Below are positions 36,401 through 39,400 of a DNA stretch of 64,000 nt, one piece after another. Position numbers: made by a program. Origin of the DNA: Escherichia coli (lineage in GTDB: Bacteria; Pseudomonadota; Gammaproteobacteria; Enterobacterales; Enterobacteriaceae). How positions within the stretch are numbered: position 1 is the stretch's first letter; the number at the start of each line of letters is the position of its first letter. The stretch lies in the NCBI RefSeq assembly GCF_003018115.1, contig NZ_CP027457.1; one strand, given 5' to 3'.

Positions 36401-39400
36401 ATTGACCACGGTACATTTTCTGCGCCCCACAATGTGTCCAGATAGGTGGACATCCGTTGAGTCATCTCAAGCGTTGAGTTGTCGTGAGAGCCAAAGATTA
36501 ACGCTTCCGTTTTGCGGCGCGGTTTTTCCAGATAGTAGACATCCTGTTTCAGGCGCGTCTCTTGTAAACCTTCGCCGGAGGAGGGGGAGGTCGTCGCGGC
36601 AATGTTGTCGTAGATCTGCCAGGTCACGTAACGCCAGGTATCGACGCGCTTTTGGATAGCGTGGGTAATGTCGACAATCTGGTAACTTTTATCTTTCAGC
36701 CAGGCGTTAACGGCGCTTTGTACCATTACACCCATCGTCACCAGTAACACAATGATCAACAGTAAAAAGAAGCGGGTAATGCTCCCCGGTAGGAGTGAAA
36801 AGCGGGTCGTGGCCGTTGTCTCTTTCTGACGCATTCGTGTTTATGACCTGTTAAAACTTCGCGAAGTGATAGGGCAGTATAAAGGGTACAGTGTGAAATT
36901 CCAGACTCTTACCTGATTGATGATTCTCTATTCTCCTGTGATATTTATCATCCTGTATGGGGGGAAATAGATGTACAAGCGCCATTTTGCTGTACAAATA
37001 ACCTACGAAAAGCCCAACGAAATTAATTGCAAATAAACGAAAATTGCTGGAAATTATGCTGATGTTAATTATTTGTGAAATAGTTAACAAGCGTTATAGT
37101 TTTTCTCTGGTAGCACAGAATAATGAAAAGTGTGTAAAGAAGGGTAAAAAAAACCGGATGCGAGGCATCCGGTTGAAATAGGGGTAAACAGACATTCAGA
37201 AATGAATGACGGTAATAAATAAAGTTAATGATGATAGCGGGAGTTATTCTAGTTGCGAGTGAAGGTTTTGTTTTGACATTCAGTGCTGTCAAATACTTAA
37301 GAATAAGTTATTGATTTTAACCTTGAATTATTATTGCTTGATGTTGGGTGCTTATTTCGCCATTCCGTAATAATCTTAAAAAGTTCCCTTGCATTTACAT
37401 TTTGAAACATCTATAGCGATAAATGAAACATCTTAAAAGTTTTAGTATCATATTCGTGTTGGATTATTCTGCATTTTTGGGGAGAATGGACTTGCCGACT
37501 GATTAATGAGGGTTAATCAGTATGCAGTGGCATAAAAAAGCAAATAAAGGCATATAACAGAGGGTTAATAACATGAAAGTTAAAGTACTGTCCCTCCTGG
37601 TCCCAGCTCTGCTGGTAGCAGGCGCAGCAAACGCTGCTGAAGTTTACAACAAAGACGGCAACAAATTAGATCTGTACGGTAAAGTAGACGGCCTGCACTA
37701 TTTCTCCGACAACGATAAGGTTGATGGCGACAAGACCTACATGCGTCTTGGCTTCAAAGGTGAAACTCAGGTTACTGACCAGCTGACCGGTTACGGCCAG
37801 TGGGAATATCAGATCCAGGGCAACGCTCCGGAAAGCGAAAACAACTCCTGGACCCGTGTGGCATTTGCTGGTCTGAAATTCCAGGACGTTGGTTCTTTCG
37901 ACTACGGTCGTAACTACGGCGTTGTTTACGACGTAACCTCTTGGACCGACGTGCTGCCAGAATTCGGTGGCGACACCTACGGTTCTGACAACTTCATGCA
38001 GCAGCGTGGTAACGGCTTCGCGACCTACCGTAACACCGACTTCTTCGGTCTGGTTGACGGCCTGAACTTTGCTGTTCAGTACCAGGGCAAAAACGGTAGC
38101 GTAAGCGGCGAAGGCATGACCAACAACGGTCGTGATGCTCTTGAGCAGAACGGTGACGGTGTTGGTGGTTCTATCACTTATGACATCGGTGAAGGCTTCA
38201 GCTTCGGTGGTGCGATCTCCAGCTCCAAACGCACCGCAGAGCAGAACAACAGTGCTCGTTTCATCGGTAATGGTGATCGTGCAGAAACCTACACTGGTGG
38301 TCTGAAATACGACGCTAACAACATCTACCTGGCTGCTCAGTACACCCAGACTTATAACGCAACTCTGGCTGGTGATTTAGGCTGGGCGAACAAAGCCCAG
38401 AACTTTGAAGTGGTTGCCCAGTATCAGTTCGACTTCGGTCTGCGTCCTTCTGTTGCTTACCTGCAGTCCAAAGGTAAAAATCTGAATGCCAACATCGCTG
38501 GTCGTACTTACGACGACGAAGATCTGGTGAAATATGTTGATGTTGGTGCTACCTACTACTTCAACAAAAACATGTCCACCTATGTTGATTACAAAATCAA
38601 CCTGCTGGACGACAATAACTTCACCCGCGCTGCTGGCATCAACACTGATGACATCGTAGCTCTGGGTCTGGTTTACCAGTTCTAATCTCGATTGATATCG
38701 AACAAAGGGCCTGCGGGCCCTTTTTTCATTGTTTTCAGCGTACAAACTCAGTTTTTTGGTGTACTCTTGCGACCGTTCGCATGAGGATAATCACGTATGG
38801 AAATAAGCTTTACCCGCGTGGCACTGCTGGCTGCCGCGCTCTTCTTTGTTGGTTGCGATCAAAAACCACAACCCGCCAAAACCCACGCTACTGAAGTTAC
38901 CGTTCTTGAAGGCAAAACCATGGGTACCTTCTGGCGTGCCAGCATCCCGGGCATTGATGCCAAACGCAGTGCCGAACTTAAAGAAAAGATTCAGACCCAG
39001 CTGGACGCCGACGATCAGCTGCTTTCGACCTATAAAAAAGATTCCGCGCTGATGCGCTTTAACGACTCGCAAAGTTTGTCGCCGTGGCCAGTAAGTGAAG
39101 CGATGGCCGAAATCGTCACTACCTCGCTGCGCATTGGCGCGAAGACCGATGGTGCGATGGATATTACCGTCGGGCCGCTGGTGAATCTGTGGGGCTTTGG
39201 CCCGGAACAACAGCCGGTTCAAATTCCGAGCCAGGAACAGATCGATGCGATGAAAGCCAAAACCGGCTTACAGCACCTGACGGTCATTAATCAGTCGCAT
39301 CAGCAATATCTGCAAAAAGACCTGCCGGATTTATATGTCGATCTCTCTACCGTCGGCGAAGGTTATGCGGCGGATCACCTGGCACGCTTGATGGAGCAGG

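Follow-up and report, generated by a model that had tools for sequence, protein, structure and literature searches.

The window, that is, the whole 64,000-nucleotide stretch of Escherichia coli DNA that was analysed, carries the order rcsD, micF (divergent), ompC, apbE and ada, which is the K-12 arrangement as judged from the open reading frames and from the annotation of K-12 and of strain F9792. The features of the ompC locus are as follows.

37146..37239, minus strand: micF antisense sRNA gene, divergent from ompC; full-length match to Rfam RF00033 (116.8 bits; gathering score 79)
37394..37453, plus strand: putative OmpR-binding boxes of the ompC promoter (C1, C2, C3), with boundaries as in the K-12 literature
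37573..38685, plus strand: ompC coding sequence, an intact reading frame with 370 codons between its ATG and the stop, start included; its product is identical to RefSeq WP_000865563.1
37573..37635, plus strand: signal peptide of OmpC, residues 1-21, all matching K-12 in the protein alignment; mature chains in the PDB begin at residue 22
38704..38731, plus strand: intrinsic terminator of ompC, a GC-rich hairpin followed by a T-run

The original prediction had placed an ompC frame of 370 residues at 37573-38685, against 367 in K-12, and this is confirmed; all four peptides that it quoted are found in the translation, and the mature protein has 349 residues here and 346 in K-12. In a profile search with the whole protein, the NCBIfam model NF007841 (porin OmpC) scores 755.2 bits with a cut-off of 484, and the profiles of the paralogues OmpF (473; cut-off 583) and PhoE (461; cut-off 599) remain below their own cut-offs. 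Pfam PF00267 (Porin_1) matches with an E-value of 8e-142, and the best sequence matches in the PDB are all OmpC. The L3 motif PEFGG is present, and the C-terminus reads GLVYQF, an aromatic end that serves as a beta-barrel assembly signal and is present alongside the Sec signal peptide. By profile, fold, signals and position, the gene is an ordinary chromosomal ompC, encoding the classical major outer-membrane osmoporin. The 89% protein identity to K-12 OmpC and the unchanged L3 suggest that it forms trimeric cation-selective pores.

Conservation of micF and of the OmpR boxes had also been predicted and is borne out. The region 37369-37572, comprising the OmpR boxes and the 5' untranslated region, has no base difference from K-12, and the intergenic sequence at 38686-38796 is 100% identical. 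A single base of micF is changed, at 37157, within its terminator stem-loop (37152-37174). In a simple scan for promoters, a single sigma-70-like match came up, below the number obtained with shuffled sequence; it is not at the known ompC promoter and was given no weight. The OmpR-dependent promoter and the micF partner appear to be retained, and OmpR/micF control is predicted to be unchanged.

Alignment with K-12 OmpC (b2215; PDB 2J1N; WP_000865568.1) shows 40 differing columns, of which 29 are substitutions and 11 are indels. An error of recall had been named as what might undo the original prediction; because direct alignment shows these differences, they are real. The indels relative to K-12 are a loss of four residues in L4 and gains of one in the beta8/beta9 hairpin, one in L5 and five in L7, a net gain of three residues. 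To place the differences, strands and loops were assigned from the secondary structure of an AlphaFold2 model of the window protein (pLDDT 91.8, pTM 0.87; 16 strands and an N-terminal segment), which was built on a 67-sequence alignment of 50%-identity representatives. An earlier model from 15 E. coli alleles alone reached a pLDDT of 26.7 and was dropped. Foldseek superposes the usable model on 2J1N, 2XE1 and 9WCB with TM scores of 0.90-0.92 and rmsd of 1.2-1.6 A (0.90 and 1.6 A for K-12 OmpC, with the same 16-strand fold and an identical L3 constriction loop). The parts that differ from K-12 are listed below; loop classes are those of Beck et al. (2016; PMC5056734).

37708..37737, plus strand: loop L1, residues 46-55; K48D, D49K and Q54K
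37819..37848, plus strand: loop L2, residues 83-92; substitutions including 85A, A86P and N88S
38086..38157, plus strand: loop L4, residues 172-195; class c4 (exact match); GFTS of K-12 deleted
38143..38145, plus strand: GAG codon for E191, the equivalent by alignment mapping of K-12 R195, the pore-vestibule arginine
38179..38205, plus strand: hairpin of beta8, periplasmic turn T4 and beta9 with the peptide YDIGEGFSF (model strands 196-206 and 209-219)
38230..38277, plus strand: loop L5, residues 220-235; class a9, whose listed type is this protein
38356..38391, plus strand: loop L6, residues 262-273; R265L, V266A and S268D
38479..38517, plus strand: loop L7, residues 303-315; class l; five-residue insertion
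38602..38652, plus strand: loop L8, residues 344-360; Q349N, D353A and N360D

On the predicted structure, 32 of the 40 differing columns fall in the external loops L1, L2 and L4-L8, eight fall in strands and none in L3. The prediction that the external loops differ from K-12, with indels, is therefore upheld, but not every peptide quoted in its support is an external loop: that of the YDIGEGFSF region maps to a periplasmic hairpin on the model. Similarly, the signal peptide is indeed identical to that of K-12, while the barrel matches that of K-12 incompletely, eight of the differing columns lying in strands. Compared with K-12, the YDIGEGFSF hairpin has Y changed to I, an added G, G changed to S and I changed to F; the IGEGF arrangement is also found in OmpC of Citrobacter and Enterobacter. 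The GFTS deletion removes the sole phenylalanine of L4.

The differences are distributed over two segments of distinct ancestry.

37573..38160, plus strand: 5' recombinant segment, encoding L1-L4; its type is that of the EC11/EC4100B allele (WP_000865564.1)
38160..38184, plus strand: recombination breakpoint interval; maximum chi-square of 72-88 with three different 3' parents
38184..38685, plus strand: 3' recombinant segment, from beta8 to the C-terminus, of a deep lineage called type B here

Before 38160-38184 the informative sites are 100% EC11-like; after an abrupt change there, about 89% of them are type-B-like, and none of 2000 permutations reached the observed maximum chi-square. Against EC11, the 5' segment has a sliding identity of 99-100% and a dS of 0.015. 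The 3' part is 94-100% identical to MB53/E2348/69, and its type B lineage is common to MB53, E2348/69, E. fergusonii and cryptic Escherichia clades; its dS to K-12 is 0.43 (0.31 in the strands alone), compared with 0.52 between K-12 and Citrobacter. The two halves also differ in frequency: sequences at least 99% identical to the 5' half occur in 60 genomes and sequences of 95-99% in 1,396, and for the 3' half the numbers are 29 genomes at 99% or more, one at 95%, seven at about 93% and the other 5,392 at 87.5% or less. Each loop sequence occurs unchanged in other alleles. A patch covering L5 (38209-38290), which reaches at best 78-88% identity within the allele panel, was considered as private to this allele; this was rejected, as its nearest relative, a sequence from a cryptic-clade strain (P0160 / L032), has 93.5% nucleotide identity and a related L5, RTAKQNNSVRYIGNGD. 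Parents were assigned with a panel of about 25 allele sequences, so that closer parents may exist. As judged from the informative sites, the window ompC is a clean chimera of two older alleles with its breakpoint at 38160-38184, and the surface loops would differ from those of K-12 because the allele arose by this recombination.

Comparison with known alleles is consistent with this structure. The K-12 gene shares locus, OmpR boxes, 5' untranslated region and signal peptide with the window and differs in the lengths of L4 and L7, in R195E and in the diverged 3' half. The EC11/EC4100B allele has identical residues from 1 to about 196, including L1-L4 with glutamate at the R195 position (99.7% nucleotide identity in this half), whereas its own 3' half, with 86% identity to the window, is that of mainstream E. 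coli alleles, and L5, L6, L7 and L8 all differ. Conversely, the alleles of E2348/69 / DEC1A (WP_000865540.1) and of E. fergusonii (WP_223663334.1) have the type B 3' half in common with the window at 94-96% nucleotide identity, with the YDIGEGFSF hairpin, the L6 and L7 strings and INTDDIV, but differ in L1, L2, L4 (a3, not c4) and L5 (a8, NYGIGNGD), their 5' half being about 91% identical. The phylogroup D / ST38-type allele associated with carbapenemase-producing E. coli (PMC6970295) shares the glutamate at the K-12 R195 position, but has D137 where the window has G137, and the window L4 is of class c4 and not d. Membership in this low-permeability class, which needs both G137D and R195E, was rejected because the window keeps G137 and so has one of the two changes.

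Among E. coli, the allele is found on differing backgrounds. The region 37393-38693 differs by 2-4 SNPs among four other carriers, compared with roughly 7-14 SNPs per 500 nt in the flanks, and the genes upstream are not the same in all carriers, some having the ato operon and others lacking it. Besides recent spread, strong purifying and codon selection may have contributed to the low SNP count within ompC, which is highly expressed.

Taken together, the gene very probably encodes a functional chromosomal osmoporin, as predicted from its sequence, and represents a two-parent recombinant allele that has since spread among unrelated E. coli backgrounds. The host appears to be an E. coli close to O169:H41 ETEC strains. 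Codons 1 to about 196 would derive from an EC11/EC4100B-type allele that is common in E. coli, and the remainder from the type B lineage of ompC, which is deeply diverged and is also seen in EPEC E2348/69, in E. fergusonii and in the cryptic clades of Escherichia; the completed chimera would then have moved into unrelated E. coli backgrounds via short-tract recombination. The product would be a trimeric osmoporin with a 16-stranded barrel, its regulation by OmpR and micF being unchanged, in which the altered surface of L1, L2 and L4-L8 may change the binding of phages, CdiA toxins, colicins and antibodies, and R195E at the vestibule may reduce beta-lactam permeation.

Several other explanations can be set against this one. 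That the differences are recall errors, made on an ompC that is in essence that of K-12, can be discounted entirely, since nucleotide identity to MG1655 is 87.4% over the gene and 98-100% in the flanks, in addition to the substitutions and indels listed above. A second alternative, that positively selected point mutations within this lineage, and no recombination, produced the present loops out of K-12-like ones, would agree with earlier genome scans that report OmpC as positively selected (cited in 10.1101/2021.09.21.461324) and with the concentration of most amino-acid changes in the surface loops. It is nevertheless highly improbable: the informative sites switch abruptly at 38160-38184, the 3' half has a dS to K-12 near the inter-genus level, and the loop sequences recur unchanged in other alleles with a synonymous-site pattern that excludes convergence. 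Clinical isolates commonly lose or truncate ompC (PMC6970295), but a decaying or non-functional gene, or an assembly artefact, is scarcely credible here, given the intact frame, the signal peptide, the PEFGG and C-terminal YQF motifs, the confident barrel model, a promoter, 5' untranslated region and terminator equal to those of K-12, and a protein that is identical across all independent complete genomes examined and on at least 1000 contigs.

Recent import of the entire gene from E. whittamii or E. fergusonii is suggested by two similarities: the ompC of the E. whittamii representative Sa2BVA5 (one genome, coverage about 8x by its contig name) is 99.6% identical to the window, and the 3' half of E. 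fergusonii ompC is 96.0% identical even though its rcsD and apbE are at 76-83%. The former was found in a scan of species-representative contigs with one peptide-derived pattern, which picks up only those representatives that encode precisely this peptide and so does not amount to a census. Such an import is very unlikely, as the identity of the 5' half is 99.7% to an allele common in E. coli and only 90.6% to E. fergusonii. The E. coli-like tract of the E. whittamii genome begins abruptly at 37424-37491 and runs from the promoter into apbE, whereas the adjoining 500 nt on its upstream side have about 77-83% identity to E. coli and 91% to cryptic-clade loci, and the SNPs in its ompC lie within the variation among E. 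coli carriers. E. whittamii was rejected as donor, the tract being E. coli-like while the adjoining upstream DNA is typical of the cryptic clades; because of the junction, the upstream divergence and the SNPs, the recent whole-gene transfer most likely ran from E. coli to E. whittamii. A non-coli or ancient origin is plausible for the 3' half alone.

The chances are about even that the 3' half of the chimera belongs to a trans-species ompC lineage that balancing selection, driven by phages or CDI, maintains beside the mainstream E. coli type, and that passes between E. coli, E. fergusonii, the cryptic clades and E. whittamii; this reading includes the very recent transfer of the chimera from E. 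coli to E. whittamii, with a left junction in the OmpR-box region (37424-37491). If it is true, porin surface types circulate across Escherichia species as cassettes bounded by a conserved promoter and terminator. The near-identical E. whittamii copy is an example of porin exchange between species.

The loop sequences allow some predictions about recognition, and published work agrees with the idea in the original prediction that variants of this kind alter it. OmpC serves as receptor for T4-type, T2-type and lambdoid phages and for CdiA-EC536. Susceptibility to CdiA-EC536 is decided by polymorphism in L4 and L5 of OmpC (PMC5056734), and the combination of L4 c4 and L5 a9 lies outside the receptor-proficient combinations tested for this toxin (L4/L5 of the 536/F11/UTI89 type). 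An L4 phenylalanine has been reported as necessary for T4 adsorption (PMC5221442, where unpublished data are cited); in alignment with K-12, this T4 epitope is absent from the window OmpC owing to the GFTS deletion. Adsorption of PP01 is decided by the L7 motif GVIN together with L5 (PMC12892980), and this O157 epitope (GVIN in L7, Ser-Pro in L5) is likewise absent, with NANIAG in the window L7 and NSARF in L5. A further paper, on Gp38 (PMC12032242), is chiefly about OmpA. The missing epitopes predict non-recognition by T4, PP01 and CdiA-EC536; other phages may use the allele. Carriers, including O169:H41 ETEC relatives, are thus predicted to evade phages and CdiA that read K-12- or O157-type L4, L5 and L7, and such escape would be relevant to the choice of therapeutic phages.

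R195E, part of the L4 change, reverses a charge at the pore vestibule and may bear on permeability and not on surface recognition. The role of R195 at this site was studied with R195L, G137D and the ST38 allele with both charge changes, and not with R195E alone (PMC6970295). The vestibule change is a candidate for reduced beta-lactam entry.

The allele itself is already known, though rare, with a RefSeq entry for its protein and a place in a published catalogue of loops, and earlier publications describe both loop polymorphism and mosaic recombination of OmpC in E. coli (PMC5056734; PMC6970295; bioRxiv 10.1101/2021.09.21.461324), so that its importance beyond cataloguing is small. The L4, L5 and L7 strings occur exactly in the S2 Table of PMC5056734 as classes c4, a9 and l. 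There, WP_000865563.1 is the type of L5 class a9, with KTE196 as type strain, and WP_000865540.1 (DEC1A / E2348/69) is the type of L7 class l; between the KTE196 protein and that of the window there is no difference. The identical protein is found on at least 1000 public contigs. Over the whole gene, identity of at least 99% was found in 29 of 5,426 complete E. coli genomes, the next best being 92.8%. Among the independent complete genomes examined, the identical protein is annotated in F9792, LH50-c, KV7, EC1515 and 19SZHZ869Rt; ompC of F9792, the closest complete genome, differs from the window by one synonymous base (38262). The hosts of the complete-genome carriers examined are human, pig and chicken.

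The ompC gene of the window is an uninterrupted reading frame of 370 codons from ATG to TAA (translation of the window ORF), with a mature product of 349 residues versus 346 in K-12 OmpC (2J1N). The protein belongs to the Pfam family Porin_1 and scores 755 bits against the NCBIfam 'porin OmpC' model (cut-off 484), far above its OmpF and PhoE scores; in a sequence search of solved structures its top matches are OmpC-type porins only. The gene neighbourhood has the canonical arrangement:

34162..36834, - strand: rcsD, upstream of ompC
37146..37239, - strand: micF (116.8 bits), upstream of ompC
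37573..38685, + strand: ompC (ORF and profile match)
38704-38731: ompC terminator, within an intergenic region 100% the same as in K-12
38797..39852: apbE, downstream of ompC
Downstream of ompC, with apbE: ada

O169:H41 ETEC genomes such as F9792 are 99.9% identical to the window across 24 kb. Upstream of the rcsD coding sequence, 33313-33389 matches the Rfam family naRNA4 (RF02564; 70.4 bits versus a gathering score of 59.5), a REP-derived nucleoid-associated RNA.

In alignment with MG1655, ompC is 87% identical, whereas its flanks are 98-100% identical. The protein differs from that of K-12 by 29 substitutions and 11 indel columns, and the predicted lengths (370 versus 367 residues) were borne out. 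The indels are a loss of four residues in external loop L4 and gains of one in the β8/β9 hairpin, one in L5 and five in L7. The differences are thus real, and all the peptides originally quoted occur in the translation. As claimed, the signal peptide is the same as in K-12. No base differs from K-12 across 37369-37572 of the MG1655 alignment, a stretch holding the 5'UTR and the OmpR boxes, which we take from the known K-12 promoter to lie at 37394-37453; micF differs at a single base (37157), within its terminator stem-loop. The altered protein together with the K-12-identical regulatory stretch therefore confirms the original observation and its statement that micF and the OmpR boxes are conserved. 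Compared with K-12, F9792 and all other carriers of the allele that were aligned, the window alone has a G at 37346, between micF and ompC and ahead of the OmpR boxes, and a T at 36048 in rcsD. Neither has an obvious consequence.

With only E. coli alleles as input, structure prediction reached a pLDDT of 26.7, whereas an input of 67 diverse porins yielded a usable model (pLDDT 91.8, pTM 0.87) that aligns with solved OmpC structures at TM 0.90-0.92. With loop boundaries taken from the strands of this predicted model, 32 of the 40 columns differing from K-12 fall in external loops (L1 3, L2 3, L4 8, L5 6, L6 3, L7 6, L8 3), none in the constriction loop L3, and eight in barrel strands. The original prediction of variant external loops thus holds for most differences, but its matching barrel core does not hold for these eight strand columns. 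Four of the eight lie inside YDIGEGFSF, part of a peptide that had been taken for a surface loop; the model places this segment in a hairpin of β8, a periplasmic turn and β9. Its IGEGF arrangement is common to Citrobacter and Enterobacter OmpC.

The two halves of the gene behave differently in the population. Among 5,426 complete E. coli genomes, the whole gene is at least 99% identical in 29, and the next best match is 92.8%. Of these genomes, 60 match the 5' 612 nt at 99% identity or more, and 1,396 at 95-99%. For the 3' 501 nt, identity is at least 99% in those same 29; one genome (MB53) has 95%, seven (E2348/69, Rb-50, A25 and others) have about 93%, and the remaining 5,392 do not exceed 87.5%. 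In a comparison with about 20 alleles, identity is 99-100% to EC11 (WP_000865564.1) in the 5' part and 94-100% to MB53 and E2348/69 in the 3' part. A maximum chi-square test placed one breakpoint at 38160-38184, its observed value being reached in 0 of 2000 permutations. The dS of the 5' half to EC11 is 0.015; that of the 3' half to K-12 is 0.43 (0.31 in strands alone), and K-12 versus Citrobacter gives 0.52. The allele is thus a product of recombination between old lineages rather than of diversification by local point mutation.

This allele has already been catalogued. F9792 encodes the identical protein, RefSeq WP_000865563.1, which is also annotated in LH50-c, KV7, EC1515 and 19SZHZ869Rt; the sole nucleotide difference from F9792 ompC is synonymous (38262). 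The exact protein sequence occurs on at least 1000 public contigs under the name porin OmpC. A survey of 2,707 predicted E. coli OmpC proteins classified L4, L5 and L7, found many combinations of them, and concluded that they act as modules (Beck et al., 2016; PMC5056734). WP_000865563.1, from strain KTE196, is the type of L5 class a9 in its S2 Table; the L4 of the window belongs to class c4 (type WP_000865564.1) and the L7 to class l (type WP_000865540.1, DEC1A). The gene is a mosaic ompC allele, rare and previously known, and the original finding is accurate but ordinary. Its only mildly unusual aspect is that the 3' half, and also the entire gene, is shared across species.

A pattern scan covering a single genome of each species detected the diagnostic 3'-half peptide in Enterobacter, Citrobacter, E. 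whittamii and the divergent 'E. coli' lineage SCPM-O-B-8794, which is 91% identical to the window across 11.7 kb. The 90% protein cluster of the window OmpC includes E. fergusonii and 'MULTISPECIES Escherichia' proteins with the same 3' features. At the E. fergusonii locus, the ompC 3' half is 96.0% identical to the window, whereas rcsD and apbE are only 76-83% identical. The IGEGF, GDLGW, FEVVAQ and TDDIV states that set the window 3' half apart from mainstream E. coli also occur in Citrobacter and Enterobacter OmpC; because of this match, the diverged 'type B' 3' half looks ancestral-like and the mainstream E. coli one derived. Two genomes labelled E. coli (SCPM-O-B-8794 and GCA_027900535.1) show only about 88-95% identity to the window across rcsD, apbE and ada, and probably represent cryptic-clade Escherichia. 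Both carry type-B ompC alleles, which in the 3' half match the window at 95% and E2348/69 at 97%, closer than their genomic background.

In E. whittamii Sa2BVA5, the GTDB representative of the species (NZ_JACSQI010000005.1), the promoter and ompC are 99.6-99.8% identical to those of the E. coli carriers; the few SNPs in ompC are common to these carriers, and E223D is the sole protein difference from the window. Directly upstream, a 500-nt stretch has only about 77-83% identity to E. coli but 91% to cryptic-clade loci; the changeover falls between window 37424 and 37491, within the OmpR boxes. This junction points to recent recombination between species, or possibly to an assembly fault, as coverage is about 8x according to the contig name. 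Recent transfer of ompC from E. coli to E. whittamii appears the likeliest reading, treated as a lead because the comparison covers a 2 kb locus (window 36920-38974) at low coverage.

Four other carriers each differ from the window at 2-4 sites across 37393-38693; their flanks carry up to 14 differences per 500-nt bin, and apbE about 20 per kb. Gene content upstream of ompC also varies: LH50-c, KV7 and EC1515 have the atoSC-atoDA operon, which the window and 19SZHZ869Rt lack. This pattern fits repeated short-tract import of ompC into carriers and agrees with published accounts of the ompC region as a recombination hotspot and of ompC alleles passing between sequence types (PMC6970295; bioRxiv 10.1101/2021.09.21.461324). 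The ato region shows a presence/absence polymorphism upstream of rcsC (window ~25591-30385): the window and 19SZHZ869Rt have yfaP, yfaQ and a gene of the alpha-2-macroglobulin family next to rcsC; in the three ato-positive genomes atoSC-atoDA takes their place, and homology to the window starts only at 30385. Further along, 45266-45592 holds 2.9 tandem copies of a palindrome-rich 113-bp unit (95% matches), at a site between mqo and eco in annotated carriers. LH50-c and KV7 have an annotated IS1397 transposase gene between mqo and eco, and their homology to the window is broken beside the array.

Since all defining features of a working OmpC are present, the protein would by default be a normally regulated osmoporin. 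From other alleles, we infer what the variant surface may change. L4 and L5 govern recognition by CdiA-EC536, to which many natural alleles are resistant (PMC5056734). T4 cannot use O157 OmpC, and an L4 phenylalanine is reportedly required (unpublished data cited in PMC5221442); in K-12 this residue lies within the GFTS segment, which is deleted in the window. PP01 gp38 requires the GVIN insertion in L7 and Ser-Pro in L5 of O157 OmpC (PMC12892980), where the window has NANIAG and NSARF. Structure 9WCB shows O157 OmpC in complex with a lambdoid gpJ fibre. K-12 R195, located in the pore vestibule, is replaced by glutamate (E191), and G137 is unchanged. R195L and an ST38 allele (D137 with E195) lower susceptibility to several beta-lactams (PMC6970295); the window has one of the two ST38 changes.

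A 392-residue derivative of exactly this allele occurs on two contigs (EFA3681187.1, EJH2462563.1). Its L4 carries an 11-residue unit, [11 protein letters not shown], three times in tandem, an in-frame surface-loop expansion relative to window 38086-38157.
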